Assembly (NCBI GenBank): GCA_965655095.1
Contig: OZ296653.1
Coordinates: 81,716,001 to 81,780,000, forward strand
Direction: 5' to 3'
DNA from: Haplodiscus bocki
Lineage: Eukaryota
Length of the DNA stretch: 64,000 nt
Shown here: piece after piece, positions 19,701 to 40,600 of the stretch
Layout: each line of letters begins with the position of its first letter
Position numbering within the stretch: the stretch's first letter is position 1
Translations under genes and position numbers: made by a program
The notes under the pieces: model-generated
Databases searched by the model: none
The model's input: the letters and a program-made list of their open reading frames with translations, nothing else
What the model was told of the DNA's origin: nothing

Positions 19701-21485
19701 ATTCAATCAGATTCCTAATAAAAAAGCAAATTTTGAACAAAATTCTTTCCTGACAGCAATGTTTTCCAGCAGTCATGAACAACGAAAGTCGAAACATTGG
19801 TTCTAGGAAAATTTCGCATTGCATTCCCAACACAATTCGAGTATAGAAAGTAAGCGCGTGAAAAAATTACTGACTACTGCTGCCGCAGCAGCAAGTTGTT
19901 GTTTATTTTGATGAGTGGAGTAATGGTTGACGCTGAAATGTATGATACTAATAACAAACGTTCCTTGATATGATTGAATTCAAGAAAGAACGCTGTTTGA
20001 ACTTCTGAAAATTCGCCTACTTTGTTTCAAAATTTATATGAAACGAACCAAAAATTTGATTGATTTAACGGATCCATAAATGTCAGTTCAAAACTTCCAA
20101 CTTTTGATGCGTTCAAACAAAACTTTCACTGAATATTTTCCAGCAGTTAAGACAACCAATGACCAAACAGTGATTTTCTGTAAAATTAACTTTTGCATCC
20201 CAAACACTATTCGAGTGTGAAAATTACGTGCGTGAAAAAAAGTATTGAATACTGTTGCCACTGAGGCAAGCAGCTGTTTTGTTTTGATCAATTGAATATC
20301 TGATGAAGCTCATGGTTTTAATGGTATTAACAACGTTCACTTGATCTGAGTGAATACAGGAAAAGCCCTGATTGTATTTCTAAACTTTTGCCCACACTGT
20401 TTCAAGTTTCACATCAAACTAATCAATTATTCAATTTGATTATAGGATCAACAAATGCCTTTTCAAAACTTGCAGCTGTTGATGTGTTGAATGAAACAAA
20501 TTACTGAGAATGCTTCGCAAAAGTTCTCGTCAGCAAATCAATTTTCAATTTGTTTTTCGGCCTCTTTTTGAATTCAACTCTAATCGTCTAGATCCAAACT
20601 CATCAAACTAGAGATCAGACCTGAAGATCTTGGTGCTGAATAGCGATTTGGGGAATGAAAGTTAAAAAAAGCCTTGACTTCGAGAAACCATGAATCAAGA
20701 ACCGTAACAATGCCCGCCCCATTTTAAACGCTGCTTTTTGATATTAGGGTTTAAATGTCTGTCTGGAGGCTTCAGTCAGCAGAATTTCAAGCCTCACTCG
20801 GAACATTGGACACTCTAGATTTTCCCGTTCGTTTTCTGCTTTCCAATATCAAGAGAAGAGAGCCATCTTGATTCTGTTCAGTGGTTAAATCCGCAGTGCC
20901 ATCTAAACTGGAAAATTCTCAAAAATATCTTCAAAAAGTAGTGTACTTCAGAGGGTACCGGAGGGCGATGCAAACTTTGGGCCATGCAGCGAGTGGATCC
21001 CATAACTCTTAGTTTGCGAAGCTCTTTGCCAACCTCTCAACTAGAGTACCTCGAAGAAAAGAATTCACAGTCATCCACAAGGAAACATCGACTCTAGCTT
21101 AATTCTGCTTTGCCAACTTGTTTGTGGTAGATGTGTTCCGTACAATATTAGCATTCGGTGTGACGCCGCCGGCGAATTTCTTTGTTTTGTTCCGAATCAT
21201 TTTTTCGGGCAACTTTTATTACCTCTCTACATCGCGCATCAAAGATTGATCCTTTTGAAAATAAACCAAATTTCAGTTTGAATTTCGTGGGTAAGAAAAC
21301 CAGAATTGTTAGAGATTTTCAGTTCAGCCGCTGGTTCTCTATTTCAGTAACTTTCGATTCACGCCTGAAAAGTTTACAACTAGGCAGAAACAAAATGAGC
21401 AGGTACTTCTTCACCGAGCCAAAGGTCAAATCTCAGGCCAAAAGTGATCTTCTCATGCCGGCTATCTAATAGGCTCTACCGAGAT
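16757..21485 (+). repeat. Left inverted arm (~4.73 kb)
   Basis: Reverse complement of 23644-28375. The inner end GCCGGCTATCTAATAGGCTCTACCGAGAT pairs with ATCTCAGTAGAGCCTTTTGGATAGCCGGC. Confidence 0.95.
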
Positions 21486-22763
21486 CCAATTGAAACCACA
21501 AGCTTTTGGACAAAATTCGACTATGTGCACAATTTAACGATTTCAGGAAAGGACACAAGCTTCTTAGAAATCAAAAACAACTACGGTAGAACAAGCAATC
21601 GCTGTTTCCAACTTTGGTTTATTGTCAAACTTTTCCCACAGAAAAGAAACCGTAAGTTTGAGAACAAATGGCATTGAAATGCAAATACTTTTAAGGAGCC
21701 TCGATCATTTGGACTGAACTGCACTTCTTGTAGGCTCAAGCACTTGTGCCTGACTATCGACTATCTACTTAGTTTGAGGCAACAAATTGATCTCGGACTG
21801 AAAGCAAGAAACAGTGTTTCAATCTCAGTAGAGCCTTTTGGATAGCCGGCATGAGAAGATCTCTTTTGGCCTGAGATTTGACCTTTGGCTCGGTGAAGAA
21901 ATATCTGCTCATATTGTTTCTGCCTGGTTGTAAAACTTTCAGGCATGAACCGAAAGTTACTGAAAAAGAGAACCAGCGGCTGCAGTGAAAAACTCTAACA
22001 ATTCAGGTTTTTTTACCCACTAAGTTCAAACTGAAATTTGGTTTACTTTCAGAAGGATCAATCTTTGATGCGCGATGTACAGAGGTATTAGAAGTTGCCC
22101 GAAAAAGTAATTCGAAACAAAACAAAAAAATTCACCGGCTGCGTCACAGCGAATGCTAATATTGTATGCAACACATCTACCACAAACAAGTTGCAAAGCA
22201 GAATTAAGCTAGAGTCGATGTTTCCTTGTGGATGACTGTGCATTCTTTTCTTCAAGGTACTATAGTTTAGTTGAGAGGTTGGCAAAGAGCTTCGCAAACT
22301 AAGAGTAATGGGATCCACTCGCTGCATTGCCCAAAGTTTGCATCGCCCTCTTTTACCCTCTGAAGTACTCTACTTTTTGAAGAAATTTTTGAGATTTTTC
22401 CAGTTTAGATAGCACTGCGGATTTAACCACTGAACAGAATCAAGATGGCTCTCTTCTCTTGATATTGGAAAGCAGAAAACGAACGGGAAAATCCAGAGTG
22501 TCCAATGTTCCGAGTGAGGCTTGAAATTCTGCTGACTGAAGCCTCCAGACAGACATTTAAACCCTAATATCAAAAAGCAGCGTTTAAAATGGGGCGGGCA
22601 TTGTTACGGTTCTTGATTCATGGTTTCTCGAAGTCAAGGCTCTTTTTAACTTTCATTCCCAAATCGCTATTCAGCACCAAGATCTTCAGGTCTGCTCTCT
22701 AGTTTGATGAGTTTTGGATCTAGACGATTAGAGTTGAATTCAAAAAGAGGCCGAAAAGCAAAT

Positions 22764-22963
22764 NNNNNNNNNNNNNNNNNNNNNNNNNNNNNNNNNNNNN
22801 NNNNNNNNNNNNNNNNNNNNNNNNNNNNNNNNNNNNNNNNNNNNNNNNNNNNNNNNNNNNNNNNNNNNNNNNNNNNNNNNNNNNNNNNNNNNNNNNNNNN
22901 NNNNNNNNNNNNNNNNNNNNNNNNNNNNNNNNNNNNNNNNNNNNNNNNNNNNNNNNNNNNNNN
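22764..22963. other. Assembly gap (200 N) flanked by a near-identical direct duplication, 21140-22763 vs 22964-24586
   Basis: Run of N. The two flanking copies differ mainly by single-base indels, e.g. AAGTTGCAAAG/AAGTTGGCAAAG and TTCGTGGGTAAG/TTCGTGGTAAG. Confidence 0.95.
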
Positions 22964-23643
22964 GTACAATATTAGCATTCGGTGTGACGCCGCCGGCGAA
23001 TTTCTTTGTTTTGTTCCGAATCATTTTTTCGGGCAACTTTTATTACCTCTCTACATCGCGCATCAAAGATGATCCTTTTGAAAATAAACCAAATTTCAGT
23101 TTGAATTTCGTGGTAAGAAAACCAGAATTGTTAGAGATTTTCAGTTCAGCCGCTGGTTCTCTATTTCAGTAACTTTCGATTCACGCCTGAAAAGTTTACA
23201 ACTAGGCAGAAACAAAATGAGCAGGTACTTCTTCACCGAGCCAAAGGTCAAATCTCAGGCCAAAAGTGATCTTCTCATGCCGGCTATCTAATAGGCTCTA
23301 CCGAGATCCAATTGAAACCACAAGCTTTTGGACAAAATTCGACTATGTGCACAATTTAACGATTTCAGGAAAGGACACAAGCTTCTTAGAAATCAAAAAC
23401 AACTACGGTAGAACAAGCAATCGCTGTTTCCAACTTTGGTTTATTGTCAAACTTTTCCCACAGAAAAGAAACCGTAAGTTTGAGAACAAATGGCATTGAA
23501 ATGCAAATACTTTTAAGGAGCCTCGATCATTTGGACTGAACTGCACTTCTTGTAGGCTCAAGCACTTGTGCCTGACTATCGACTATCTACTTAGTTTGAG
23601 GCAACAAATTGATCTCGGACTGAAAGCAAGAAACAGTGTTTCA

Positions 23644-26600
23644 ATCTCAGTAGAGCCTTTTGGATAGCCGGCATGAGAAGATCTCTTTTGGCCTGAGATT
23701 TGACCTTTGGCTCGGTGAAGAAATATCTGCTCATATTGTTTCTGCCTGGTTGTAAAACTTTCAGGCATGAACCGAAAGTTACTGAAAAAGAGAACCAGCG
23801 GCTGCAGTGAAAAACTCTAACAATTCAGGTTTTTTTACCCACTAAGTTCAAACTGAAATTTGGTTTACTTTCAGAAGGATCAATCTTTGATGCGCGATGT
23901 ACAGAGGTATTAGAAGTTGCCCGAAAAAGTAATTCGAAACAAAACAAAAAAATTCACCGGCTGCGTCACAGCGAATGCTAATATTGTATGCAACACATCT
24001 ACCACAAACAAGTTGGCAAAGCAGAATTAAGCTAGAGTCGATGTTTCCTTGTGGATGACTGTGCATTCTTTTCTTCAAGGTACTATAGTTTAGTTGAGAG
24101 GTTGGCAAAGAGCTTCGCAAACTAAGAGTAATGGGATCCACTCGCTGCATTGCCCAAAGTTTGCATCGCCCTCTTTTACCCTCTGAAGTACTCTACTTTT
24201 TGAAGAAATTTTTGAGATTTTTCCAGTTTAGATAGCACTGCGGATTTAACCACTGAACAGAATCAAGATGGCTCTCTTCTCTTGATATTGGAAAGCAGAA
24301 AACGAACGGGAAAATCCAGAGTGTCCAATGTTCCGAGTGAGGCTTGAAATTCTGCTGACTGAAGCCTCCAGACAGACATTTAAACCCTAATATCAAAAAG
24401 CAGCGTTTAAAATGGGGCGGGCATTGTTACGGTTCTTGATTCATGGTTTCTCGAAGTCAAGGCTCTTTTTAACTTTCATTCCCCAAATCGCTATTCAGCA
24501 CCAAGATCTTCAGGTCTGCTCTCTAGTTTGATGAGTTTGGATCTAGACGATTAGAGTTGAATTCAAAAAGAGGCCGAAAAGCAAATTGAAAATTGACTTG
24601 CTGACGAGAACTTTTGCGAAGCATTTTCAGTAATTTGTTTCATTCAACACATCAACAGCTGCAAGTTTTGAAAAGGCATTTGTTGATCCTATAATCAAAT
24701 TGAATAATTGATTAGTTTGATGTGAAACTTGAAACAGTGTGGGCAAAAGTTTAGAAATACAATCAGGGCTTTTCCTGTATTCACTCAGATCAAGTGAACG
24801 TTGTTAATACCATTAAAACCATGAGCTTCATCAGATATTCCATTGATCAAAACAAAACAGCTGCTTGCCTCAGTGGCAACAGTATTCAATACTTTTTTTC
24901 ACGCACGTAATTTTCACACTCGAATAGTGTTTGGGATGCAAAAGCTAATTTTACAGAAAATCACTGTTTGGTCATTGGTTGTCTTAACTGCTGGAAAATA
25001 TTCAGTGAAAGTTTTGTTTGAGCGCATCAAAAGTTGGAAGTTTTGAACTGACATTTATGGATCCGTTAAATCAATCAAATTTTTGGTTCGTTTCATCAAA
25101 ATTTTGAAACAAAGTAGGCGAATTTTCAGAAGTTCAAACAGCGTTCTTTCTTGAATTCAATCATATCAAGGAACGTTTGTTATTAGTATCATACATTTCA
25201 GCGTCAACCATTACTCCACTCATCAAAATAAACAACAACTTGCTGCTGCGACAGCAATAATCAATAAGATTTTCACGCGCTGATTTGCTATACTCGAATA
25301 GTGTTGGGAATGCAATGCGAAATTTTCATAAAACCAATGTTTGGACTTTCGTTGTTCATGACTGCCGGAAAACATTGCTGTCAGGAACGAATTTTGTTCA
25401 AAATTGGCTTATTTCATTTGGAACCTGATTGAATAACGTTTACTAGACATCTTCACACTTCTATTGTACTTTGCTGTGAATACACTATTATGAATACAAT
25501 GAGATTTTTCAGAAAAACTCAAAGATTTTTAAAAAGTTGTAATAGATTTGGATGGAATTTTCACTCTGTTTTCAGATGCAAACATCACTTTCTAAATTCT
25601 ACCGTGCGGTGATTGTAAATTTTTGCCAGAACAGATTTCGGACTTGGCTGAGTTGGACATTATTTTTGCTGTTTGAATTTTTCTCTCCCCGCTCGCACTG
25701 TTTTGTACATCAAAGGTTCAGTAGATAACAGATGTCTACAACCACCGTTCTTGTTGTCATTTCATTGATCAGGGGTAGTTCTTGAACGATTGGGTAGTTT
25801 GCAGTGAACCTTTCACTGTTTTCCAACTGGTCGTTGGACTGTTCAACATTTGTACAGTAAACGTTATCTCAGTGAGGAAACTTGAAACACATTTTTGATG
25901 TGAGTTGGCAACAGCGTGACTTTCTCAGAAAACCTTGCTTCCAGCTAACTGAAACTAACTATGGACTCCTGTCACTGTGCTTTTCGGGCTCGAATGAGAA
26001 GGCAGTAACTTATCGCAGTTGTGTTTGGATGTTTGAATTCGAAAATATGATGTCAATTTTATAAAATTGAAGTTTTTTCAGAGTCTATAGCTCTGAGTTA
26101 ATGCCTAACTTTTGTCTAATTGTTTTGCCAATGCGGTTTTTGGACTTGCCCATGACTTTACCTGAAGTCACTAGTTGCGCTAGCAGGACTATAAACATTT
26201 CTGTTTCAATGCGTGCGGTGCGGCATTTTGCAAAAGAGTTGAAGTTTAAAGTAGCGTGGAAGTAACATCAGTGTTTCAAAAAATAGTTTTTAGTTTACCC
26301 CGAATTGTACAACAGACGTTTGCTTTAACTTCAATTGCATTGTTGATGTGAGCTTGCAAAAATGCATGATTTTCAGGACTATAGTTTTCGGAGTTGTTGG
26401 AATTGTGCTGAGTTGTTTCCCAGGATCATTTGTGACTTCATTCAGACTTGTAAGTCAATTGTTTACCAATGATCAGAGCTCCAGAACAACCTTTTCGATG
26501 TAAATTTGCAGGAGAAAAGCATTTTCAGACAGACTTGTGTTTTTTGCAATTCAGGAGTCAACTTTCTTGTTTCATTGCTTTCAATTTAATTTTGGGCCTT

Positions 26601-28375
26601 TGAAAGGCTATACATCGATAGTTTACTTTAGTTCAGACGACTAAAAACAAACACCTTCTCGCTTAGGATTTTGCCAAAGCATAGCGCTTTTGAGGGAGTT
26701 TTATTTTTTTGTAATATCATGCTAACGGTCAATTGTTTTCCATTATGGTTTTGGTGTTAGCGATACTTGTACACCTTGTGTTTGCATGTTTACTTGGAGC
26801 CGAAGGTATAGAATGACCCTTTTGAGATGAATTATCAAGACCACGGCATTTTCAGACAAACTTTGTGTTTACCGTAATAAAGTAGGAATGTTTAACTGCT
26901 TCCAAATCGCATTTGGGTTTGCACAAGGCTATCCAATAGTGTAGTACAATTTAGGAAACTGAAGCCACAATTTGTCAGGGAGTTTGGAAGAGAACGTTTT
27001 TTTAGAAAGTGCTTTGATTTTATGTAATGTGATACCAACACTTAGTAGTTTTTCAATCTAGTTTTCGGCTCTTTAAATCTAGTGAATAAATTGTGTAGTT
27101 GAGATTTTTAACTGTGTGAAACTGCGTTTCTTGATATGGATTGGATCGAAGATTGCAGTTTCAAACAACCATTTTGCTCATCGGCATTGAGAGTTGACTT
27201 GAATTTTCACAAAAGATAGCTTTTTTTGCTCCCCAAGACTAGTATATCGAAAGTTTAGTTGCAGGTATAGCACAACCCTTTTGACATGATTTTGCTAACC
27301 AAGGCATTTTCAGACAGAAATTTATTTTCCCGTTTTATAACATTAGCTTTTAATTGCTACCAATGGCATCTCGGGTTTCCCAAGTCAAAAAAATACAAAT
27401 TTAATTGAGCTCGGATTTTGATCGTTTTTCAGTTTTTCGACTCGCCCACAAACTTTTAATGGAGTTCGGAATTGTAAAAGCAAAATCTTGATGTGAGTTT
27501 ATGGAAGAACGGCTTTTTCTAAGACTTTTGGTTTAAAACGTTGTGACATTAACGTTTCATTGTTTTTCCAATATGATTTTCGACTCACCCACTTTTTCAT
27601 GAAACGGTTGATTTGGTTGGGTTTCAGTTCGGAATTTTCAGATTTTTTGCGTTTTAAACATTGTTAGACTGCCATTTTATTGTTTCGCAGTACGGTTTTG
27701 GAATCGCCCACCGTTATGCATCAAATGTTGAACAGTGTTCGGAGACCCAAAATTATCTCTTCTGATGTGAGTTTGCTAAACCACGGTTTTTCAGGATAAT
27801 TTTCGATTTTAGGCAGTTTAAGATTACCATTCAAGTGTTGCCCATCGCGGTTTTTGGACTCGCTGGCTTTTATTAAATTTCCCGCCCATATGTAAAAATG
27901 GAAGGTAAATCATAACCCAAATCTGAAATTGAACGTTTTTTTTACCTTTCGCGAACTGATAATGTCCAACTTGACGCTAGTGTTCGGTCTCGAGTTTAAA
28001 CGTTTCCCATCCGTAGAGTGTAACTGAAATATTAAGATTACACGAAACGTACAAAATTTGGTTTTTGAAAAAAAGATGTTTTTTTTTCTCAAAACTTGTA
28101 TCATTACTGTCAATGTAAAAGCTTTTGTCATATAACGGATAGCTCGCAAACAGATATCAAAAATGTTTGAGGTAGCCTTGGTAGAACTGTCAAATCTACG
28201 TAGAAAGTTTGCAATGTCAACGAATATTGACAGTTGGTTTACTTACTGTGTACTTAGTCAACAAAATTCAGTTTCGGTTGATTTTGTACTTTGCACTCTT
28301 AGAAAACATGTATGAATTTGATGACTTCATATAGGGAGCCATGAAACTGTGCGGGGCCCCCCAGCATATACTACT
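23644..28375 (-). repeat. Right inverted arm (~4.73 kb)
   Basis: Reverse complement of 16757-21485. Confidence 0.95.
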
Positions 28376-28381
28376 TCCAAT

Positions 28382-29820
28382 CATCTTTCAATGCATTCGG
28401 GAAAGCAATCTGTTAAAATAACTTTCTAGAGTCTATTTGGTCTGTTTCCGGATTTCAAGCAAAGTTTTTAGAAATTGGTCCGAAAACACTCAGCAAAGTA
28501 GTCAAGTCTGCTTTCTACGAGTCAAGAGGAACAATTTCAGAGAAGAGTCCCTGAAATTAGATCGGACATGTTTTGGTGATCTTCACAGAAATGATAAGAA
28601 ATTTTCATAGAAAATCTTTCCGTAGTGATATCAAAACTGCTTACGTCGTGTTCAGGGGTAGGGGTGACTTTCAGAAATGTTTTTCATAGAACAGTTTTCC
28701 AAATTCGGAACTTGTGTGACTTTCTTCAGCGGAAAAAACTGGACTGAGGAAAACATTTTCGTGTTTTAATTTAAAAAACTTTAAAAGCTGTCAAACCTAG
28801 AATTTACGTGTCTGAGAGAACATTTTTAGAAGATGAGTTTTCAAAAACACATATAAATTTTTTCTCAGAATTTCAACAAAAAATATCGGACTTTCAGCAC
28901 AACTTTCTCCGCAGTGTTAACAAAACTGCAATCTACATGTGCAGCAAAACTCTGCGTGTTTCAAGTTTTTTTCCAAAAAATTTTTCAAGTTCATTTTTAA
29001 TTTCGCTTTTAATGCTGAGAAGTTCCGGACTTTGCGCTAATATGTTTTGGCAGGGTTATCAAAACTGCAGTATATGTATCGTGAGAACCATTTTAGTTTG
29101 AAAAGTTGTTCAATTTTTTTCTAAAAATCCTTTTGTCGAATGTCTAGCAAGACACTTCCGTACTTTGATTGAGAATGTTTCGGGAAGTTTAGCAAAACAT
29201 CAATCCCGGCTTCCAGGGGAACATTTTCGTTAATCAACTCTTCACAATGAACGTGAACTTGCTTTCAGGTTTTGAGTGAACAAACGGAGCGAAGCGAAAC
29301 AAATTTGCAACTTGATCGTAAAAACGGTAGCAACGTTGTCAACTAGGCCTCGTACGCTCCAAAGGAACAAATTAGGAAGAAAACTTTGCAGAGAATAGTC
29401 TGAACAAAACTTTTGTCATCTCCGCCAAAGTGTTATTGGACTTTGACCGAAACTTTTCGACAGTGTTATCAAAACTGGTCTCTACGTATCCAGATGAACT
29501 TCATGCGAAAATCAAAAGTTTGAAAACTTTTACAAACTTTTTGTGATTTAGCACAAAAGCTACCGTGTTTGAGCTAAATCTTCGCGACAAGGATGTCAAA
29601 TCTGCATTGTCTGTCTCCTGACAAAACGTTTGTAGAAAAACGTTTGTAGAAAAACGTTTCAAAAATTTCGATTTCTTTGGACGTTTGGGCAAAAAAAAAC
29701 ATTCACACATTGAGCGACACATTTTTGGCAAGTTTGTTCAAGCAGCAAAGTACGTGATCAAACAGACTATTTGGGTGGCCAGAATTTCCGTAGAATGTTC
29801 CAAGTTTCAGAAGTTTTTTT
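28382..29820. repeat. Continuation of the 1.76-kb satellite after the insertion; array end
   Basis: Resumes in register after the TSD. Unit marker at ~29132. Same monomer motifs, e.g. GCTACCGTGTTTGAGCTAAATC. Confidence 0.95.
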
Positions 29821-29829
29821 CAATGACTT

Positions 29830-30310
29830 AGCATAAGGCTAGTGAGACTAACAACTCCTTCACTTGGAAAGAAGAAACACAAGAAGCACTTGAGAGTTTA
29901 ACGCATCCACACAAGAACCATTCATTTTGTACACTGACGCAAGTTTAACGGCAATGGGAGCAGTATTAGCCCAAGTGCAGGACGGAAAAGAGCGAGCTAT
30001 TATCTATACATCTAAGGCATTTTCGAATTCTCAAACGAACTAACCTGCAACAGAACGAGATTTTTCAGCTATTGTAATTTTCACCCATCACTTCAAATTT
30101 TACGTTCTCGGAAGGAAGTTCAACATTGTCACTGATCAACGAGCACTGCAGTGGCTGCACAATTCTAAACATCCGGACGGATTGACAGCAAGGTCGCTCG
30201 AAAAGTTGACAGCAAGGTCGCTCGAAAAGTTGACAGCATTTGATTTTGAGGTGCAACACAGACCAGGCAAAAGTAATGGCCATGCCGACGGACTCTCACG
30301 AATACCGATT
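29830..30310 (+). pseudogene. pol: pol: RT connection and RNase H remnant
   Basis: Manual translation gives FTWKEETQEALESL ... PFILYTDASLTAMGAVLAQVQDGKERAIIYTSKAFSNSQTN*PATERD ... VLGRKFNIVTDQRALQWL ... FEVQHRPGKSNGHADGLSR, which are typical Gypsy RNase H motifs. It contains an in-frame 24-bp tandem duplication (LTARSLEK x2, ~30182-30237). Confidence 0.93.
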
Positions 30311-30370
30311 GTAAATCAAGTCACTACTTCTCAAAGCAAAGAAAACTTAAACAGACCAGAAACGATGAAA

Positions 30371-30775
30371 ATCTTTGAGATAACTCACAAAATTGGTAAA
30401 CTTTTCGAACCAAAAGACTCACTCGCACACTGCTTTTCATCCGACTTCAAAATGTCCGCAGGAATTGCCCGAAGTTTCAAGAGTGAGTTTTCCTACAATT
30501 TTCCAGAGAGCATCAATTCTGCACTTTTTTGTTCAACAAATAGATGATCGCTTCATCTACAATTCAGTAACGAAGAAACTCTTTTTCCAAAAGCCAACCA
30601 ATGATAGTTTGCGAAAATCATTAGAGGCAATGACGAATCATGCTAAAAATTACAAAGTCAACCAAATTAGTATGCGATAGCCGGTTATGGACTTGATCAA
30701 ATAGAATGGCACAAAGTTAGAGGCCTGATCAAACAAATCTGTGCACAGTCAAAATTAACCATCACAGTCTATGAT
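30371..30775 (+). pseudogene. TARG1/OARD1 (Poa1p-like) macrodomain inside pol, with two frameshifts
   Basis: Joined frames read IFEITHKIGKLFEPKDSLAHCFSSDFKMSAGIARSFK...DDRFIYNSVTKKLFFQKPTNDSLRKSLEAM...ISMR/AGYGLDQIEWHKVRGLIKQICAQSKLTITVYD. This is colinear with OARD1 motifs DSLAHCISED.RMGAGIA, RYIYYLITKK, KPTYENLQKSLEAM, SMPRIGCGLDRLQW and ITVY. Confidence 0.88.
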
Positions 30776-30817
30776 CAGAACAAAACTGAACAATCTCAAA
30801 AACAGGATGAAACACCA

Positions 30818-32713
30818 GTGCACTCTGCATTGGGCCAGGTACAACGTCAAGCAGAGGCATTGTCCAAACTTATTCGTTGGATCGAACAAGGAAATGTGCC
30901 GACATCACAAAAATTGCAAGGACTTCATAGGCTCGCCTGGCAATTCAAGAACCAACTCCCCGATGGAATTTTGTGCCGAAAATTTGAAACTGGCGACAAT
31001 GAAGTAGTATTACAACAAATAGTGCCGCCATCAATGACGCACGAAATTTTATCAGCGTGTCATTCATCACCATCAGTCGGACATTTAGGAGTTGCTAAAA
31101 CCTCAGAGAAAATAAAAGAAAGATTCTACTGGCCAGGACTGCAGGCAGACACAAAACCGTTTGTCAGTCAGTGCCCGGAATGTCAAAAACGTTCGGGACC
31201 GCCCAAGAAATATCATCATTCACTAATAGAATGGCAAGCTAGTTATCCATTTCATCACATTGGAATCGATTTCTCGGGACCTTTACCAATGTCAAACGGA
31301 AACAAACACATCCTAGTAATTGGCGATCACTTCACAAAATGGTACGAGGCAATACCATTACCAGATGAAACGGCCGTCTTAACTGCGAATGCCTTAGTTG
31401 ATCATTGGATCAGCCGATTTGGTTGCCCACACAGGCTGCACAGCGATCAAGGCCGAAACTTCGAATCAAAACTTTTTGAACAATTAATTCAACTTCTTGA
31501 AATGGACAAAACCAGAACAACACCTTTTCACCCTCAGTCAAATTCGGTGATCAAAAGATTGAATAAAATTTTACAAAATATGTTAGCAAAATGTGTATAT
31601 GAAGAGCAAAGCAATTGGTCACAGCAATTGCCGTACGTTATGATGGCCTATCGATCTTCGGTACACGAATCAACAGGATATGCATCTCAATCCCTAGTTT
31701 TTGGACAAGGATTGAGTATGCCTTTAGATTGCATGTATCCTAACCCGCAAGAAACAGAAAGTACTGATATCTATAAATTCGTGCACAGTAAATAGCGAAC
31801 ATTTCAACAAGTTTTTGAGCTAGTTCGACACAACTTGAACGAAAAACAAAAACGCCGAAATTTTATCTACAGTAAAAAGGTTCACGGCCCAACATACAAA
31901 GAAGGACAGAAAGTTTTGCTTGATCATCCAGCCACCAGAATTGGAACAACTTCTAAATCCGCAAGCCCTTGGAAGGGACCGTATATCGCTGAAAAATGTT
32001 TAAACGATGTAACGTTCAGAATCCAGGAAGAAAAATCCTCAAAACAACAAATTGTACTTTACGACAGTCTGAAATTTTTCTTTGAATCTCCGACTAAGTC
32101 CAATGTACCTACAAGAAACAAACCAAGAAAATTTCAGTCAATTCAAGAAATAGCAGATACACAAAAACACATAGATGGAACACTTAATCAAGATGATTGT
32201 CCTAGCTTCTTGCCAACACCTTCTAGTGCTTTCACACCAATACCTGCCGTAGGATGAACAACCGCATCAATCCCAACAAGTATATTTACACCAATTACTT
32301 CGTCTGCACCAATTACTTCGTCTGCCCCAAAACGAGAGGTAACGAGATCACCTCCTGTATTCTCGCTATCACCCGTAATGGAACAACTTAGTCCACACAC
32401 AGGAAATAACGTTGCAATACAACCACCGATTATCCCTGAAATCGACATACAACCTCTCATCCCGGACACAGCCTTTATCGACGAAAGACAATCACCACGC
32501 GACAAACTCACGGAAATCGTGGACGCAGCAGCTAGAAATCTTAGAACAACTCCTGCAAACACGTCCACAATGCAGTTACGAACCAATACGTCAGCACAAA
32601 GAAAAGCACAACCACTTTTCACGTCATATCTCCCAGACATAAAAACGGGTTATAACTCTCCAGATAAAAAAACCCGAAAACAGTGTCAGATGGAAAACTT
32701 AAAAAAACCTTAA
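30818..32713 (+). pseudogene. pol: pol: integrase (HHCC zinc finger, DDE core, GPY/F) plus a Pro/Ser/Thr-rich tail
   Basis: ACHSSPSVGHLG...FYWPG...CPEC; IGIDFSGP; LHSDQGRNF; TTPFHPQSNSVIKRLN (catalytic Glu replaced by Lys); WKGPYI. In-frame stops at ~31793 and ~32255. Confidence 0.95.
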
Positions 32714-32740
32714 CAAAAACAAAACTCATCATAAGCAATA

Positions 32741-35130
32741 ACGAAGATCTTCCATCAGGATTACAACACTAGTTTACATCTGGGGCACGTTTTTCAATGC
32801 AGATATCATGCAGTATTCCACGGTGAACAAACAACAGCTACCGGAATTCGAACGAGGAGCTGCTGTCATCATTAAAAACCAGGTTTTAACTTCTGAAAGT
32901 CAGAGCCAAGTTCGAATATTCTCTGTTTTCCCGACACTACCGGATGATAAAATTGACGGAGTGCATGCCATTCTTCCAGAGAGCAATCAGAAGCTGTCAC
33001 GCATCCAAAATCGCGTCGCACAGGCCAGATGCAACAACATCACGTTCGACGATTCACATGTACCAGTCACTCAACAAATGGAAAGCATGTACAAGTACCT
33101 CAAGCAAGAAGTTAATGAAGCTCAACTTGAGCTCAACACTTTGAGTGATGTTGCGTAATTCTTCTTCCCACCAGAATCAGCGCCTGGAACTACTCGTCGA
33201 CAACGCTCAATCGATGAGGAAGAACCTCACAACAGAACACGGCGACCTATTGGTGCTGTTGCCGCAGTCGCCGCTGGTACAGGATTCATCTTAGGAGAAC
33301 CAATTAGAGACGCAGCTTGCAATGCACTGTCCATTTTTTTCTCTGCGATTCCACGAAAGATTTACAACGCGAACTCGACCACGTAACCAAACAACAAAAG
33401 ACACAACAGAAAGCATTCCAAACTGTTCGAGATCAAAATATTGAAAAACTTGCCCTACTTCGAGACGAAATCCGTTTGACCCAAGAAAGTGTTGAACGAC
33501 TCAAAAAAGACATTTATACACACAATTCTTACTTGCTTGAATGTATAAACACTCTGGACGATGCACTTTGATGCTATCCATTCGAAAAAGCTCACCGCTA
33601 TTTTCTGCAATCTTCACAACATTAATTGTCACAAATTGGCACATTTTATACACACTTTTAAAATTTTCCGTGCCGCATTCTACGCCTAAAGAATTAAGTT
33701 TTCTTTCTTATGCAGCGGGACACATTACTCTACAATTCTTGCTCCCCACACAACTTGCTACCATCGTGCAAGAGCTGGCTGCTGAAGAATTTTGGAAAGG
33801 CAGCAATTTGACATCAGCTTTACCATCGGGATTCGAAGCCATCTCTTATGAACTGCAAACAGTATTAGAAGTCACGATATTATCTAAAGGTATTTCTTTT
33901 CCCCTTGGGGTTCCGATGAACACCAAATCCGCTACATATAATGTTTTCCAAGCAGAACCTTTATATCAACCCAACGACGACGGCAAGACGGCATCCGTTT
34001 ACCAATTCCCAAAAGGCTACGTCGCGATTGCAGCAGACAATACCAATTCCGCAGAATTAGCAGCGTCTACGCTACAACAATGCACGAAAAGCAATCGAAT
34101 CAAACTATGCCGCGAAGGTTTTTCGACCACTACTGATCAAACGCTAGTCTGCCTCACGTCGTTTTATTTCAGTCAACACATTCCAGGACTTCGAAATTGC
34201 CCTGTTTTCTCTGTATTTCATCCAGAAGCCCCACAGACGATCTACTTGGCAAATGGCGTCTACCACCTCATTTCTTGCAACCCCACGATGGATATTAAGA
34301 AACACAGCAGAACACATGGACTCAGTTTGTCCACCATAGATAGTCAAGCATGCGTCCATCGACCTACATGCACAAGTACTATTTATATCAATCAAGGCAG
34401 ACGATTTCGTTTTGTCAGCCGACATGGATGCATGTAAAACTACCCCGGAACCGTACATTGCTACAATTAAGCTAGCCCCTCCCCTGTATCAGGTCTTCCA
34501 AAACGTACTGTTTGAACGACTCAACTTCCCAAGGGACTCCATTGGTGCTGCCCGGAAATCAATTCTTGAGAGTGTCTAGTTGGGACTGACTGAAATTCTT
34601 GACGTTAGACGAATGGATCCCGAAACCTTGCAGAAACTGACTGAACCTATTGTTGCACATTAGACATCTCTCAATCCTGCAACCGCAGCTGCACTTGGCA
34701 ACTTTGTTTCAGCAAAAACCTCTTTCTTAATCTACGGCGGATCAATCGTACTTTCTTTTTTTTGTTTATACTTAACTTTCCACTTTTTCACAGACAGGCA
34801 CGTGCACTTTGCTGTTCCCCAGGTTATTTCTTCAAGAATGAATCTGGCCAATTTATTCACGTAACAGACGACATTGACCCTGACACTGACTCTTCGTTTC
34901 TTCTTCTCACTCCTGAGAAATTCACTGCACTGTGTGCTCTTGGAAAAGAAGCCCTGTTAAAGACTGAAGCTAACGCACCGTTTACATACTCCGGCGAAGA
35001 TGAAGTAACAATGTACCCGGACATCACTGCACAAACCAGAACCATCCGTACCACACCTCCGTTGGTTCTAACTAACTTCACTCTAGCTCCTGTGTCGACC
35101 AATGATGCCACACAAACCACCTCTTTATAA
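32741..35130 (+). pseudogene. env: env-like class I fusion glycoprotein (baculovirus/errantivirus/paramyxovirus F-type), disrupted
   Basis: Reading through the stop at 33156-33158 gives TTRRQRSIDEEEPHNRTRR-PIGAVAAVAAGTGFILG (furin sites plus fusion peptide). A heptad-like helix (33317-33571), a Cys-rich region (CTKSNRIKLC..VCL..NCP) and a hydrophobic TM (~34720-34790, SFLIYGGSIVLSF/FILNF) follow, then a cytoplasmic tail. The start position is inferred from a frameshifted signal-like stretch (ITTLVYIWGTFFNA). Confidence 0.85.
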
Positions 35131-35705
35131 ATCTTCGCTCCAAGTAATGTATCATAGTGTTGAAATGTACAAAGTTCAACTCTTTAAAATAGGTAAGTCT
35201 CAATAAGTAAAAGCGTCTCCTCGGAGCCTGTGTGCGGCACTAGCGTGCCCCCCTCTAACCCCGCCATTTAACTGCTTTCCAGCCTTCAACAATGTCTCAT
35301 TTGTCTACAAGTTGTCGCTACCCTTGTCACCACCCCCCACACACCGAACAACGTCCCGCACTACGCCAGTCCTGCTTCGACCACATGGTCTCTCACCAAG
35401 CCATACGCAGCTCATTTTGCGGCTAATCTGTCGCTTTTGTGCGAAATTCCTCTATCCCCTTGCATTTAACTTGTCATCTTGCCCCAGGCGTTTTTCATGG
35501 CTTCAATTCCCAATGCATCACAGGCCCTACTTCTACCCCTATTTGTAACCCCTGTTCTCGATCACCATATTACCTCACACACCCCTTTTGCCCCTCATGT
35601 GCTTCACCCCGACCAATTCCTCTTCATGAAAGACCCAGATATACTTTGTTACGACCCCCGCATGTCCCTTACCTGCCCAACCTCCACCTCATTCTTCCAA
35701 ATTTT

Positions 35706-36068
35706 TTATCTCTCAAAGTAGATACCCCAACCGTGACCAAAACAATCGAGACAATGATACTTAATAAACTTCAAACTTGAGTAACCGGCTTTTATAGCCC
35801 TTAAAAATTGCCTGCTAGCCTTGTTGTTCATAAGACTCATTTTTACAAGAATTAAAGCAAGTTCATCAGCTAACTCTTTTTGTAAGCTCAGCAGCTTCTT
35901 AAAAGTGAGACGGTTTCCGCGTTCCCTTGATTATTTTAGCGTACGTTCTGCATCAATGACAACTTGTGATGGGCAAACTAACAACTTTCGCGTGGGTATG
36001 TGATTCACCTCCTCAATGACAGTCAATACCGCTTACTCAAGATCGCACCTCCCCTTGGCCCAGTGATC
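35706..36068 (-). pseudogene. Candidate antisense accessory exon of the retroelement, unknown product
   Basis: A 121-codon frame with two internal TAA, starting directly after the minus-strand acceptor GGTTTGTTTTTTTCAG|. The translation looks protein-like. Confidence 0.4.
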
Positions 36069-36143
36069 CTGAAAAAAACAAACCTTTCTACATATCGCAG
36101 TTTTCTACGGGCCCCTTCACAACTATTCATCAGCACTCCTCGC

Positions 36144-36326
36144 ATGGTCAATCAATCGACCCAGACAGATTTCCAACCCACAGACACTGACGACCCCTTA
36201 GCTCGTGATACTCTTCAAGATTGTGCTCCTGCCGCTGTGGAAGCCTATCATCGAGGCGGACCTTATTGTGTTAGCGAAATCCATTTTATCGATCTTCCTG
36301 AACCCGTCACCAATGTCTCAGTTTAG
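36144..36326 (+). CDS. Small 60-aa ORF just upstream of the PPT (MVNQSTQTD...), function unknown
   Basis: Intact ATG to TAG. The N-terminus contains STQTD. Confidence 0.25.
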   Translation: MVNQSTQTDFQPTDTDDPLARDTLQDCAPAAVEAYHRGGPYCVSEIHFIDLPEPVTNVSV

Positions 36327-36345
36327 TTTGAGGGACACAAACTAC

Positions 36346-36356
36346 AAGAAGGAAAA
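36346..36356 (+). promoter_or_regulatory. Candidate polypurine tract
   Basis: AAGAAGGAAAA preceded by TTTGAGGGACAC, which resembles the TTGAGGAC motif often found upstream of Gypsy PPTs. Confidence 0.4.
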
Positions 36357-36359
36357 CTT

Positions 36360-37157
36360 TATGACAATCGATATTATCAACAACAGAAATAACATGAACA
36401 TTTTGATAAACATGAACACTTTTGACTCGACATTTTGAACTACTTTTTTCTATTTATAATTTTGGTGCTCACCTTGATTTTTCTTAAATTAGGTTGCACC
36501 TATCTTACTCCCGATCACGCCGCGTCTCGTGACAACATATCACCCCACCTCAATCTAATAAAAGTGCAGATTTTAAATTAAAATGACGAGTTTTCTGGTG
36601 CTTTAACAATTTCTTGGACACGGCCGTTACACCACAGCAACTTCTTGGAATCGTGTTGGTAACCAAAATTCCAAAACATTCCAAGCACGAACTCCAGAGG
36701 CTTCTTACCACAAAATCGCACTAGATCGACAAAAATAGCCAAAAATCGTCAAAGTACTAACAGGCGTGAAAATTGATCACGCCGGCCAGAGAATATAGGA
36801 CAGCATCGCCAACCTCTGCTTTTAGACACCCAACTTAGAAAGACCAAACTCAGCTTCTACACAATCCAGTCACTTGTTTCAATTTTGCTTTTCGAAATCT
36901 AAATTCTCAAACTTAGACGTTAGACGTCGAGCTAAAACTCGTTCAATTTGAAAATCTGATATTTAATGCTTAGTTTTGCTTCATTCTAACGAAAATATTC
37001 TTGTTCGGCTAATTCAGATACTAAACAGCAACTTTGACTTAAAATATAAGGAATAGTTTATTTTATTTGGTAGAGTCCCGGTTCGGGATCACTGAAATTT
37101 TCTAAGCAGCGATTTTGACTCCTCGTTGAAGAAGGTGCGGACCTGAGCCCTCTCATA
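36360..37157 (+). repeat. Candidate 3' LTR (~0.8 kb)
   Basis: Starts TATGAC just after the PPT and ends CTCATA. Contains TATTTATAA (~36451) and AATAAA (~36557). An unrelated dispersed repeat begins ~40 bp later. No second LTR is available to confirm it. Confidence 0.45.
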
Positions 37158-37194
37158 TCCAAAGCAATGAAACAGCTATTTCAGCGATTATTAT

Positions 37195-37652
37195 TTTGCG
37201 CCATAGAATATGAAAGCAAAATCTTCCTCTCAAATAGGTCCGTTTACCCGATGTTTGCCAATTGAGCTCGCGCAAAAACGATGTTGGCTCGTTCTGAACG
37301 TGAATTTTTTTCCACCAAATTGTTGCAAATTTGCCGTAGAATGCCACTAAAAAAGTAAGATTTCTCAAAACGTTCGAAATATGGTTTTTTTTTGGAAGAG
37401 ATGTTTTTTCATAATCGCTAAATGTGGCAATTTTTTTCTAGAATGCGTCTCAAATGGTATTTCTTTAAAATGTCTTTCCACGTTATTTTTGAGGTTTTTT
37501 GGCTGAAAATCAGAAAAAAATTAAAGTTGGAAAAATTACAATTTATGAACAAAAAGGGTATTTTGAAAAAAAAACGCTTTCATCCTTCTAAAAGGCATCT
37601 TTAACAATGTTGGAGGTCGCAAAATATCTCGGAGGTAGCCGGGTGTCTTGTT
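37195..37652 (+). repeat. Dispersed ~460-bp repeat, possibly a non-autonomous Helitron-like element (copy 1)
   Basis: Colinear with 60575-61040 (GCAAAATCTTCC..CAAA, TTACCCGATG.TTGCCA, ATTTGCCGTAGAATGC, GAGGTTTTTTGGC..AAATCAGAAAA). Ends in a GC-rich imperfect hairpin followed by CTTGT. Confidence 0.7.
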
Positions 37653-40600
37653 TTATCTGTCATTCTCATGTGCACTGGCAGTTTTCTCGCAATTTTGCAT
37701 TTCAGAATTTATTGATCAAAAAAACTATTACTTTGCAACCAATTCATTTGCGTAATAGTTCAGCATTCATGCTGTCAACGCATGACGATTCATACGCAAT
37801 AGCGAAGTTTATTTGCATACTACTTTGCCCCATTGCTCCAACAATTTTTAGAGATCAATCAGGCTATCACAGGTTTTTCATGTTTTAATTAATGATCTTA
37901 AGCCCAATTTCCGAGGCAGGCCTTACACTTTCTTCCGTCTCTCAGGAACTGATTCTGGAAATGACAGAAGGTTTCACTGCGTTATTCTGCAACAACAACT
38001 GCTGCGAGAGAATGACAAAACAAGACTTTCATCTCAACTTCACGTTAAAATCTTTCAACGCAGAGGCAAACCGGAACTTCGCAACACATTCTGACTACTC
38101 GGTTCAAAACAAAGATCAAGTTGACAGATTAAAAGTCCTGAGAGACGTTTGAAGAACCTTGACCAGATAGATGATTGACACTTTTTGAAATACTACACCA
38201 GATGGCTATCAAGAGGTTGTTCGATAAATTCGAACTGAGTCAAGAACTTGTCACAGTGTCTGATACTCGAAAAGTTGATCTGTCAATCATAGCTTTTTAC
38301 ATTCGCTATTTTGCGGCTCAATGTTTGAAAAATTTACGCAGTAAACAAAGCCAAAAAAATGAACAATACTGTGTCCTGAAAAACGTTACATGTAAAAGTT
38401 TCGAGCTCTCCAAATGGCAAATAACAGTCAACATGACGTCAAAACAACTTCAAGTTTTTTTATTTCCCATAAAGCTTTCAGAGCTTAAAAAATTTAATCT
38501 TTTCCGGGGACACCTAATACACTGCCCACGTGTCTTTTATTCAAAACATTGTTGTGTGAAACATTACCTTTCTGAACGCTGCTGTTCAACTTTCAAACCA
38601 ATGTTCGAAAATTTACACTTTCAAGAATGCAAAAAACAGGTACCAGCTAATAGGTTTCAAAAAAAGGCCCTTTTGACCATTTACATTAGATGACTAGACT
38701 CTTTCATGACGTCACAAAAATTATAAATGAGCCGATTCCCACTACACACTCTTCCTCTCAGTCACTATGTGTAAAAAATATCACAAAGTATTTGTAAGCA
38801 GGCAACTCTGCATTTGATTATTCTCGTTAATTTTTAAAAAGTATTATGTAACTGAAAGCTGAAGGGTGGGTCATTCCGATTTGAATACACATTAAATTAA
38901 TTTTAAGTCAGTAGTTTTGACATTATTGCGGATTATTTGACACAAAAATCAAAAACCTAATGACCTTTCATTCATCGTTTTATGCTATAGAATTGGATGT
39001 AACACTAGTGGATTATACACCACGGCGAAATAAATGAGCATTAATTGAAGAAGAAGTTCATAAAAATGGGGAATTTCTTCCGTCAATTTTAACCCATATA
39101 AAAAACTCCCGAAGCTTGTGATATGCCACATTCCTAGTGCAGCACTTCTGAAGCAACAGTTGGGTATATTCATGTTTCCATAGTTCTATTTTACCATATC
39201 TGCCATGATAAAATTGAAAAAAAAATTGATTTCATGCCAGTATTTCCGAGAAAAAAATTCTGCTTGTCAACCAAGAGTTAGTTCGAAAGAAAGCTATAAA
39301 AAAACCCATCAAAAATTGAAACATGTTTTGAAACTGTAAATCTCGAAAATGCAAGTATTAGTAAACAGTAGGTGAAAATGCTTCATAAATTCCTTGCCCA
39401 ATCTGTCAACCATTCGAATTATGAAAGTAAAGAGTACATCATTGCAGTAAAACAACAGTCAGCACTTTCAATATCTCACTAAAAGGCTCACGCCATTTTC
39501 ACAATTTCATATCATCTCGAGGTAAGTTTTAATTTAATGATTGACAATCAACATGGTTGACTAGAAAGCTTCAACGCTTTGCTTAATATTATAGGTTATT
39601 TTAGCCAACCCAGTAGACAACTTGAAGTGCCTTCCACACTGCCTCATACTCAAAACCTTGACCTGTCAATCATACGTTTTTGAGTCGCTCCTTTTTCTAC
39701 TTGTTCAAGAAACACTTATATTTTGAATGCGAAAACAAGTACCTGCTAGATCTCACAGAAAGGTCAGTTGTGACCAATTAGCGCTTCACCACTAGACTCC
39801 GAAGACGTCAAAAACTGCTAGTTTTGAGCCACAAAAAAGACTTCAGTTACCCGTTCCAATACACGCTTCAAAACTTCTTTTAACCATGTGTAAAACATTT
39901 GAATTTTTTCTCTCTAATTCGCTAATTTCAAAAATGTATATCATGACACTCGAGTGTTCGAAAGATTTTTTCATGTTTGAGTAAAAAGAGTCGAGTAAAA
40001 CTTCGAGCCAAAAATTTTCATTTTCTGTGAGCCAATAATCTTCATTTTCTGTTAAGTTGTCATTGGTCTTTCCAACCATCAATATTCGCAGCATTTCAAG
40101 GTGCACGATTTTTGTCTCCGCGAGAAAAGACCCAATTCTAAGCGGTGTAAAGTATTTCGGACGATTCAAGAGTCAAGAGTATTCAATTATTTTTACTAGC
40201 AAAAGTTGCAAGAAAAACGCAACTTTCCACGGGTTCGTTATTTTAAAACATTTTATACTAGCGATAGATTGACTGCAAAAAATTGATAAATTTCTTTTAA
40301 AACAGCTAGTTTACATTTTTCCGTTTTCTCAATTTCTTTAGCGCAGTTGAATACACAAAATATCGTAGTGCCACTGCACCTGTTACATACGTCGAAGCAT
40401 AGGCGCCAAGTTGAAAATACTTAACAAGATCAATGATTTGGATGTAGTGCAAGTGGGTAAAATGCCCTTAGATCGAGGACTGCTACGAAGATCGTGTTAA
40501 TTTGGCTGATATTCAGACAATCGGTGCCAATTATGAGTTACGTTTTTCCCAAAGACTTCCACGCAGAAGCCATTATAGGAACAGCAGATGCTCACTTCGG

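Follow-up and report, generated by a model that had tools for sequence, protein, structure and literature searches.

Architecture and state of the element

The window analysed here is a 64,000-nucleotide stretch of the Haplodiscus bocki genome, and all positions are counted from its first letter. A Ty3/Gypsy copy spans positions 29832 to approximately 37155 on the plus strand and reads, in order, RNase H, a TARG1-type macrodomain, a 'mini' domain, integrase, a Pro/Ser/Thr-rich tail and a class I F-type env. A preliminary description of this DNA had proposed the order RNase H, macrodomain, integrase, tail and env, and Pfam, PDB, family-profile and relative alignments all agree with it. The alignment to relatives starts at 29832, placing a 5' break in the connection region shortly upstream of RNase H. 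A tandem-array unit matches up to 29817, and the element begins directly after it. The 5' LTR, gag, protease and RT are missing. What remains of pol is disabled by three stops and three frameshifts and env by six stops and five frameshifts, so the copy is dead in both genes. Strand skew is unbroken from 30000 to 37000, and the negative GC skew of the element stops near 37000. Rfam gave no match over 29500-38000. An unrelated repeat begins at 37207, 3' of the element.

The assignment to Ty3/Gypsy follows from domain order. RNase H precedes integrase in the window, and the relatives P0056, P0063 and P0069 carry protease, RT, RNase H and integrase in that succession. The best fold match of the Pol model is the Ty3 RT. 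The end of the RT connection and RNase H occupy 29832..30301 (Pfam RT_RNaseH, E = 4.8e-26, and alignments to relatives), with a frameshift near 29901, a stop at 30041 and a 24-nt duplication visible as a tandem repeat at 30182-30238. The 'mini' bridge domain lies between the macrodomain and integrase at approximately 30810..31015. It corresponds to residues 495-564 of the P0050 model, where the secondary structure consists of helices followed by three short strands, and it was identified solely against the verbal description in section 7 of PMC13524379. The integrase (31022..32075, stop at 31793) comprises an H2C2 zinc finger, a catalytic core and a p58-type C-terminal module by Pfam (Integrase_H2C2, 2e-19; rve, 2e-10; Integrase_p58_C, 0.004). 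The Pro/Ser/Thr-rich tail, recognized in the translation, extends over 32076..32741 with a stop at 32255, and is poorly conserved among relatives (27% mean identity). The end of pol abuts env, and the alignment to P0046 reaches 32710.

Mean identity among 17 unbroken Pol relatives is 0.78 for RT, 0.79 for RNase H and 0.73 for the integrase core. The longest ORF of the window's own subfamily among the 120 Pol matches listed is 916 amino acids, and none of these matches is an unbroken protease-to-integrase ORF of that subfamily, despite large env clusters.

A TARG1-type macrodomain in Pol

The macrodomain (30365..30775) is split into three frame pieces, which cover 30365-30763, by frameshifts near 30527 and 30678. 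Two of the pieces match human TARG1 in the PDB (E = 5e-5 and 2e-6), and the family profile covers the domain. Codons equivalent to Lys84 (30573-30575) and Asp125 (30695-30697) can be read from the sequence, and these are the catalytic residues of TARG1 (PMC9967889, excerpt). The resemblance to TARG1 noted earlier thus holds. The macrodomain of an intact relative matches TARG1 by sequence at E = 5e-33, and the model of P0050, whose macrodomain takes up residues 344-483, agrees with TARG1 to an rmsd of 1.9-2.4 Å at 44-47% identity, with TM scores of 0.83-0.88 to 4j5q/r/s. Judged from sequence and predicted structure, the domain is of the TARG1/DarG class, with a fold nearest to TARG1.

The Lys84 equivalent is present in 31/31 rows and the Asp125 equivalent in 35/35, counting the rows, of 36, that have a residue at the position. 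In the 17 unbroken Pol relatives the mean identity of the macrodomain is 0.54, against 0.18 and 0.15 for the flanking linkers, and in trees of 27 proteins the domain evolves approximately 2.5 times as fast as integrase. The macrodomain is likely to be enzymatically active in intact copies.

The F-type envelope

The broken env occupies 32742..35130 and is supported by intact relatives and fold matches. Its stops lie at 33156, 33569, 33623, 33687, 34577 and 34661, and its frameshifts at about 33336, 33656, 33705, 34399 and 34757. A signal-peptide-like stretch (32760-32801) stands 3' of an AG that resembles a splice acceptor (32757-32758) and may serve as one. Two basic furin-type motifs (33195-33206 and 33234-33245) are followed by a fusion-peptide-like stretch (33246-33296), and a membrane anchor begins at 34724 with a cytoplasmic tail after it. 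In the position of env 3' of pol, the F fold, the furin site, the fusion peptide and the membrane anchor, the element agrees with errantiviruses in the wide sense, those that carry an F-type env.

The window env is 79% identical to an intact relative over 758 codons, and intact relatives measure 749-771 amino acids. In a search with the model of an intact relative, all 40 PDB rows listed are paramyxovirus or pneumovirus F proteins (155 matches at E <= 1e-3), and matches in a viral structure library include baculovirus F at 1e-15. The fold scores are modest, with TM values of 0.15-0.41 and a VIA Z of 8.4 for NDV F that unrelated helical bundles equal. Pfam reported nothing above its cut-off for the window env pieces and six intact relatives, the only signal being Baculo_F at E = 0.002 in P0042; PHROGs and NCBIfam gave no env match. 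The relative P0166 does score above the Baculo_F cut-off, and Baculo_F or Fusion_gly occurs in Atlas neighbours of P0247, a distant relative. The F-type env of the preliminary description is confirmed by the identity to an intact relative and by the match of a relative's model to F proteins. An F-type env on a Gypsy element is not itself new, because the combination has been described across many invertebrate phyla (PMC13524379); the present element adds another F-type lineage.

The interval between env and the LTR

Between env and the candidate LTR lies a 1.2-kb interval (35131..36345) that is C-rich on the plus strand. It contains an antisense frame of 108 codons with one stop (36032-35709, minus strand) and a small ORF of 114 codons (35982-36326, plus strand). 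If these were real accessory genes, the family would be 'complex' in the retroviral sense, as had been suggested. The length of the interval gives some room for this reading. From 35771 to 36023 all three plus frames are repeatedly stopped, against one stop in one of the minus frames. The final 60 codons of the small ORF, which begin with an ATG, score slightly above zero for codon use like that of the element (+0.03; true controls, 0.00 to +0.12). Pol and env are broken once per 200-500 bp, and at that rate real small genes would be hard to recognize in this copy. However, the frames are no longer than chance allows: 41% of 1000 shuffles of the interval contain a stop-free frame of at least 114 codons, and local, after-the-fact P values for the antisense frame and the small ORF are 0.09 and 0.06. 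The antisense frame scores -0.05 in codon use, below two plus frames. Neither frame matches a Pfam or NCBIfam family, and the small ORF has no match in PHROGs. None of 315 env and pol relatives matches past 35161, in a set that was not gathered with these frames. With lengths within chance and no family match, the 'probable accessory genes' are not supported in this copy, and we regard such genes here as unlikely.

A candidate polypurine tract, an 11-nt purine run at 36346-36356, precedes a candidate 3' LTR running from TG at 36362 to CA at 37155 (plus strand). The purine run and both termini are present, but the window holds no second LTR, and the boundaries are therefore provisional.

Recurrence of the architecture

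The macrodomain profile matches 36 of the 120 Pol relatives listed, at the same place in Pol. In the integrase tree, the window, 35 macrodomain-bearing rows and two ORFs that start past the macrodomain form a single clade (SH-aLRT 99). This was a quick IQ-TREE run on 120 rows, all of them search matches, with P0087 dropped for short coverage. The sister pair of the clade, P0084/P0088, has no macrodomain match. Macrodomain and integrase trees of 27 proteins correlate (Spearman 0.77) and share six of nine supported macrodomain splits, with one conflict. The macrodomain tree contains three outgroups, none of them a cellular TARG1, and is compatible with either a host TARG1 or a virus as donor.

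Macrodomain, integrase and env occur together in one record only in the window, and elsewhere the connection is a chain. P0046, P0047, P0049 and P0050 join macrodomain to integrase, and P0051, a different copy with 85% identity, spans integrase and the tail and enters the N-terminus of env. P0051 was found at 3e-12 by an env profile that keeps its sparse N-terminal columns. The only other matches of this profile are two weak ones, in P0134 and P0148, close to the N-terminus of each. A comparison by eye of the pol and env match lists showed no contig common to both.

Chance nesting within a Gypsy relic, whether of a host TARG1 fragment or of an unrelated element with an env, would suit a truncated copy beside a tandem array, with its macrodomain divided among three frames and a single LTR candidate, but this is very improbable given unbroken RT-RNase H-macrodomain-integrase ORFs in many families, the continuity of P0051 from integrase into env, the similar divergence of window pol (73-78%) and env (79%) from their nearest relatives, and the uninterrupted skew. 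Because the macrodomain is present in 36 of the 120 listed relatives, 35 of them in the window's integrase clade, and P0051 links integrase to env, the window is not a nested chimera of the kind that the preliminary description had offered as its own refutation. Its view of a single Gypsy element with both a macrodomain and an F-type env is upheld at the level of the family by the profile, the clade and P0051, and the joint architecture is almost certainly a real family trait.

When long polyproteins from other taxa were screened for the macrodomain, at low sensitivity, 229 candidates gave seven matches, four of them from the same clade. An Atlas search with the macrodomain and its flanks produced no usable match, and P0047 gave 55 pattern matches in a genome collection, none of which was confirmed. 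The Pol alignment retrieved 78 loci from this collection, mostly Gypsy-like DNA inside MAGs and bacterial IS elements, and the 77 that were scanned (L014 was left out) have no macrodomain, env or env-LTR-interval match.

Relation to known elements

The closest comparison is with the 'ancient errantiviruses', which are invertebrate Ty3/Gypsy elements with an F-type env (Chary and Hayashi, eLife 2026, PMC13524379). These share with the window element a pol followed by env, RNase H and a 'mini' domain before integrase, multi-copy families, and an env of the F type that has a furin site, a fusion peptide and a membrane anchor. On balance we favour the reading that the window copy is a decayed, 5'-truncated member of a multi-copy, env-carrying Ty3/Gypsy family of this type. 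What sets it apart from them is a TARG1-type macrodomain that follows RNase H and precedes the mini domain. The survey covers roughly 1,500 elements and has no acoel entries, 'macro' has no match in its main text, and the supplement matches shown are species names. Its bridge-domain table distinguishes only RNase H, mini, pseudo-RNase H and 'Other', and a macrodomain could lie within the five 'Other' rows or the 'outlier' classes. No report of a TARG1 macrodomain lying between RNase H and integrase emerged from the literature searched, a scope that does not extend to Repbase/GyDB.

The Drosophila errantiviruses (gypsy, ZAM and Idefix; Metaviridae) likewise have an F-type env related to baculovirus F. 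Their env is made from spliced RNA (PMC12992720, excerpt), which fits the missing start and the acceptor-like site of the window env. In insect errantiviruses the bridge contains a pseudo-RNase H (PMC13524379, section 7), whereas in the window family no pseudo-RNase H follows RNase H and the macrodomain and mini domain stand there instead.

Capture of enzymes by retroelements has other examples. An Ectocarpus Gypsy with YbiA/NADAR in Pol and NADAR-bearing Tx1 LINEs also contain a captured, lineage-kept domain related to ADP-ribose (PMC12477816, excerpt). NADAR belongs to a domain family distinct from the macrodomain, and in the Ectocarpus element, from a brown alga, it is at the Pol N-terminus, and the excerpt mentions no env. 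Retroviral dUTPase is similarly a captured enzyme in pol and can lie between RT and integrase, and LTR retrotransposons of bdelloid rotifers have a dUTPase placed between protease and RT, which the rotifer TelKA clade combines with a paramyxovirus-like F env (PMC5408684). Human TARG1 (OARD1, C6orf130) and bacterial DarG, which are ALC1-like hydrolases, share equivalents of Lys84 and Asp125 with the family macrodomain, but each is a stand-alone gene or antitoxin, whereas the family domain sits in a retroelement polyprotein.

Possible role of the macrodomain

In this clade Pol runs in the order protease, RT, RNase H, TARG1-type macrodomain, mini domain, integrase and Pro/Ser/Thr-rich tail. The clade may owe its macrodomain to one capture at its base, with inheritance along with pol thereafter. 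As part of Pol it would be packaged with RT and integrase, either tethered to them or freed at the variable linkers. There it could act as TARG1 does and hydrolyse ADP-ribose off Glu/Asp residues in the proteins of the element or off its DNA/RNA, most likely reversing host ADP-ribosylation that would impede replication. Env would be translated from spliced RNA and cleaved by furin, and particles would pass from cell to cell as those of Drosophila errantiviruses do. Infectivity has been shown for the latter. The lineage of the window element may be infectious, and intact env ORFs exist in relatives.

A counter-defence role is plausible, and we give roughly even chances that countering inhibitory host ADP-ribosylation is the main job of the enzyme. 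The narrower proposal, that an invertebrate env-bearing Gypsy clade packages a TARG1-type hydrolase to free the element's own cDNA or genomic RNA of ADP-ribose added by the host, is speculative and rather doubtful. Nucleic-acid ADP-ribosylation is known from bacterial DarT-type systems. In human cells ZAP/PARP13 does restrict L1, but by way of RNA loss (PMC4441479, excerpt).

An active enzyme could instead do replication housekeeping, either removing PARP marks from the integration gap to let repair finish or processing the RNA/DNA ends of transposition intermediates. Its position in Pol places it with RT and integrase, and processing of RNA intermediates has been proposed for NADAR in Gypsy Pol and Tx1 ORF1 (PMC12477816, excerpt). 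However, 84 of the 120 listed Pol matches have no macrodomain match, so most Gypsy elements replicate without the domain, and none of the 77 loci scanned has a macrodomain match; by motif, 23 of these extend from RNase H to integrase. Its sporadic presence in an RNA-virus replicase, a gag-like gene model and a tyrosine-recombinase protein also fits a conflict gene better, and we consider housekeeping possible but somewhat unlikely. Still less probable is a chromodomain-like ADP-ribose reader guiding the integration complex to PARylated chromatin or damage sites: Gypsy integrases repeatedly gain chromatin-reader domains (PMC12477816, excerpt; PMC13524379, section 8) and the macrodomain is directly N-terminal to integrase, but a pure reader has no need of the invariant catalytic Lys and Asp, and known readers are C-terminal to integrase (PMC13524379, section 8; PMC12440569, excerpt).

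The genes that a parasite captures and keeps point to the defences it faces. That the catalytic pair is intact in numerous divergent Gypsy families suggests that retroelement replication in this host is affected by ADP-ribosylation, and, together with NADAR of the algal Gypsy and oyster Tx1, the macrodomain may belong to a pattern of repeated acquisition of ADP-ribose-related domains by retroelements. If host-added ADP-ribose is indeed stripped from element nucleic acid, its addition would be an anti-retroelement defence in an animal, and a reverse-transcribing, integrating element would have evolved the same counter-measure as RNA viruses. The macrodomains of coronavirus nsp3 and alphavirus nsP3 also lie within a replication polyprotein, although these viruses neither reverse transcribe nor integrate. 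The coronavirus domain counters PARP restriction (PMC6521996), and the RNA-virus macrodomains that have been studied well belong for the most part to the MacroD class (PMC4245714, excerpt). One RNA-virus replicase with a macrodomain of the TARG1/DarG class was found (P0316); the domain of the Hubei virga-like virus 22 replicase is of this TARG1 type, with 39% identity.

A TARG1-type macrodomain in the Gypsy Pol bridge

From 29832 onward, the plus strand carries a Ty3/Gypsy element reduced to its 3' portion. In its Pol, Pfam recognizes RNase H (E = 5e-26) and the integrase modules zinc finger, core and p58-type C-terminus. The stretch separating RNase H from integrase holds a pair of frame pieces that both have human TARG1/C6orf130 as a PDB match (E = 5e-5 and 2e-6), and a profile built from relatives places the macrodomain at 30365-30763 (+). 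Translation downstream of integrase gives a Pro/Ser/Thr-rich tail ending at about 32710 and then an env-like frame from about 32760 to 35130 (+). The order given in the preliminary description (RNase H, TARG1-like macrodomain, integrase, P/S/T tail, F-type env) is confirmed.

The macrodomain assignment is also borne out by an AlphaFold model of P0050, a protein relative. Its macrodomain (pLDDT about 90) matches TARG1 with an rmsd of about 2 Å and 44-47% identity, and DarG stands lower in the match list. A modeled helix-plus-three-strand unit downstream fits the "mini" domain described in the text of a survey of "ancient errantiviruses" (PMC13524379). Among 17 unbroken relatives, mean identity is 54% for the macrodomain, 18% and 15% for its linkers, and 73-79% for RT, RNase H and integrase core. 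The Lys84 equivalent is kept in 31/31 rows and the Asp125 equivalent in 35/35 rows having a residue there; the numbering is taken from the PDB alignment and shifted to full-length TARG1. PMC9967889 describes these residues as catalytic.

Distribution and apparent novelty of the macrodomain

The best 120 of 1652 matches to an unbroken integrase piece were taken as Pol relatives. A macrodomain profile built from 20 of them matches 36 of these best 120, several being unbroken protease-RT-RNase H-macrodomain-integrase ORFs of 1560-1650 aa. In a quick integrase tree of 120 rows (one match, P0087, was left out for short coverage), a single clade with SH-aLRT 99 unites the window copy, 35 macrodomain-bearing rows and two ORFs whose start lies downstream of the macrodomain. 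Its sister pair has no match to the profile, and the pseudoscorpion, eel, oyster and sponge matches fall outside the clade and are without a macrodomain. For 27 proteins, the macrodomain tree and the integrase tree are broadly concordant (Spearman 0.77; six of nine supported splits shared, one conflict), and the macrodomain evolves about 2.5-fold faster. Judged from sequence, the macrodomain is a trait of the whole clade and not of the window copy alone.

Beyond this clade the macrodomain is rare in the searches made. None of the 77 genome-collection loci scanned has a match, including 23 whose motifs extend from RNase H to integrase. A low-sensitivity search returned only three others with the same TARG1-type domain, which are possibly independent captures by mobile elements: the Hubei virga-like virus 22 replicase (P0316), a Frankliniella (thrips) gene model that includes a retrotransposon gag domain (P0317), and a 1634-aa protein whose C-terminal part matches tyrosine recombinases (P0318). 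Gypsy pol genes also turn up on many MAG contigs of the bacterial genome collection (L001-L041), probably as host DNA binned with symbionts.

Macro (Appr-1-p) domains have also been described in certain non-LTR and DNA transposons. A TARG1-type macrodomain in the Pol bridge, with its catalytic pair kept across a clade, appears undescribed within the largely open-access literature searched, Repbase reports and GyDB aside. The text and bridge table of PMC13524379 mention none, and figures or supplements there may label one differently. PMC12477816 reports that the Pol of one Ectocarpus Gypsy lineage carries a NADAR domain, a close conceptual precedent, and PMC5408684 reports rotifer elements that combine an F env with a dUTPase within pol. 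The env is already known in kind, env-F Gypsy elements being widespread among invertebrates according to the text of PMC13524379.

An F-type env linked to pol

An env piece used as query finds 45 relatives. Some are unbroken ORFs, 749-771 aa long and 81-84% identical, and the largest of their clusters has 188 sequences; a profile search finds 794. For a model of the relative P0007 (mean pLDDT 76, 44-row alignment), all 40 PDB rows listed are paramyxo- or pneumovirus F (155 matches at E<=1e-3, best 4e-6). The viral library returns chuvirus-like glycoproteins, an abalone herpesvirus protein and baculovirus F (1e-18 to 1e-15), and another relative, P0166, passes the Pfam Baculo_F cut-off. The F-type assignment proposed earlier stands on model and profile matches, with modest fold scores (TM 0.15-0.41; VIA Z 8.4 for NDV F, equal to unrelated helical bundles). 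In 11 of 12 close relatives (alignment A1; window 33195-33245, +), two R-X-K/R-R motifs on either side of a short acidic spacer are followed by a hydrophobic Ala/Gly stretch; two more distant relatives have one motif. The twin furin-type motifs recall RSV F, which is doubly cleaved.

P0051, a different copy whose integrase is 85% identical to the window's, extends beyond the tail through the first ~100 env residues (matching window 32730-33026), so a second copy also has env next to pol. Divergence from the nearest relatives is alike for window pol (73-78% identity) and env (79% identity). As read in these two copies, the env belongs to the Gypsy element. A chance or nested chimera is very unlikely given the macrodomain clade, the P0051 continuity and the equal divergence. 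Env clusters of this subfamily hold 188, 117 and 86 sequences and pol clusters (656-2000 aa range) 1-8. This difference is a search artefact, or else many copies combine an intact env with a pol that is broken or deleted.

A signal-peptide-like stretch (32760-32801, +) has no in-frame ATG upstream and follows a pyrimidine run and an AG (32757-32758, +). Together with the translation of Drosophila errantivirus env from spliced RNA, as described in PMC12992720, these features suggest that this env may also be translated from spliced RNA. Among eight close relatives reaching this region, seven start calls are later and one is at the stretch. The alternative is read-through from pol, and the relatives' env does continue in the same frame as pol.

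Possible role of the macrodomain

According to PMC9967889, TARG1 strips ADP-ribose both from Glu/Asp and from thymidine in DNA. The macrodomain may have been captured once, at the base of the clade, and would be packaged together with Pol; the predicted enzyme would hydrolyse ADP-ribose from the element's proteins or nucleic acid, with cell entry by way of env. The chances that its role is one of conflict with the host, countering ADP-ribosylation, seem about even, and we favor this role over its rivals because macrodomains occur patchily in unrelated parasites. A housekeeping role in integration or RNA processing is distinctly less probable, and use as an ADP-ribose reader for targeting is improbable.

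State of the window copy and its surroundings

The window copy is dead, judging by the stops and frameshifts that frameshift-aware comparison with stored relatives finds in pol (three and three) and env (six and five). Its 5' break, just upstream of RNase H, directly abuts a 1.76-kb tandem-array unit (match up to 29817); the 5' LTR, gag, protease and RT are absent, and the 64-kb window holds no second copy of any element part. The array has about ten copies (1-16750 and 28382-29817), 60-100% alike and most similar between adjacent units, and the Gypsy copy's cut-off point is the end of the last unit.

Downstream of env are a candidate polypurine run (36346-36356, +) and a candidate 794-bp LTR (TG at 36362 to CA at 37155, +). 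The preliminary description also saw probable accessory genes here. The frames are present, an antisense frame at 36032-35709 (minus; 108 codons, one stop) and a small ORF at 35982-36326 (+; 114 codons), and their lengths are within chance: 41% of 1000 block shuffles of the env-LTR interval have a stop-free frame of at least 114 codons, and the local P values, computed after the fact, are 0.09 and 0.06. Codon-use scores are negative for the antisense frame and slightly positive only for the small ORF's last 60 codons, and neither has a family match. Accessory genes are not supported by these sequence tests, though decay could hide real ones. A dispersed repeat (37207-37548 and 60582-60949, 72% alike) starts 50 bp past the candidate LTR end.

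An 11.6-kb element at 16757-28375 sits in register within the array. Its inverted arms are about 4.7 kb long and reach 99% similarity, and a 200-N gap (22764-22963) interrupts its middle. The element is probably non-autonomous, since its left half has no long ORF. Its ends read AGTAGT...ACTACT, and a 6-bp direct repeat, TCCAAT, flanks it (16751-16756 and 28376-28381). This duplication and the 5'-AG ends recall Polinton/Maverick elements.
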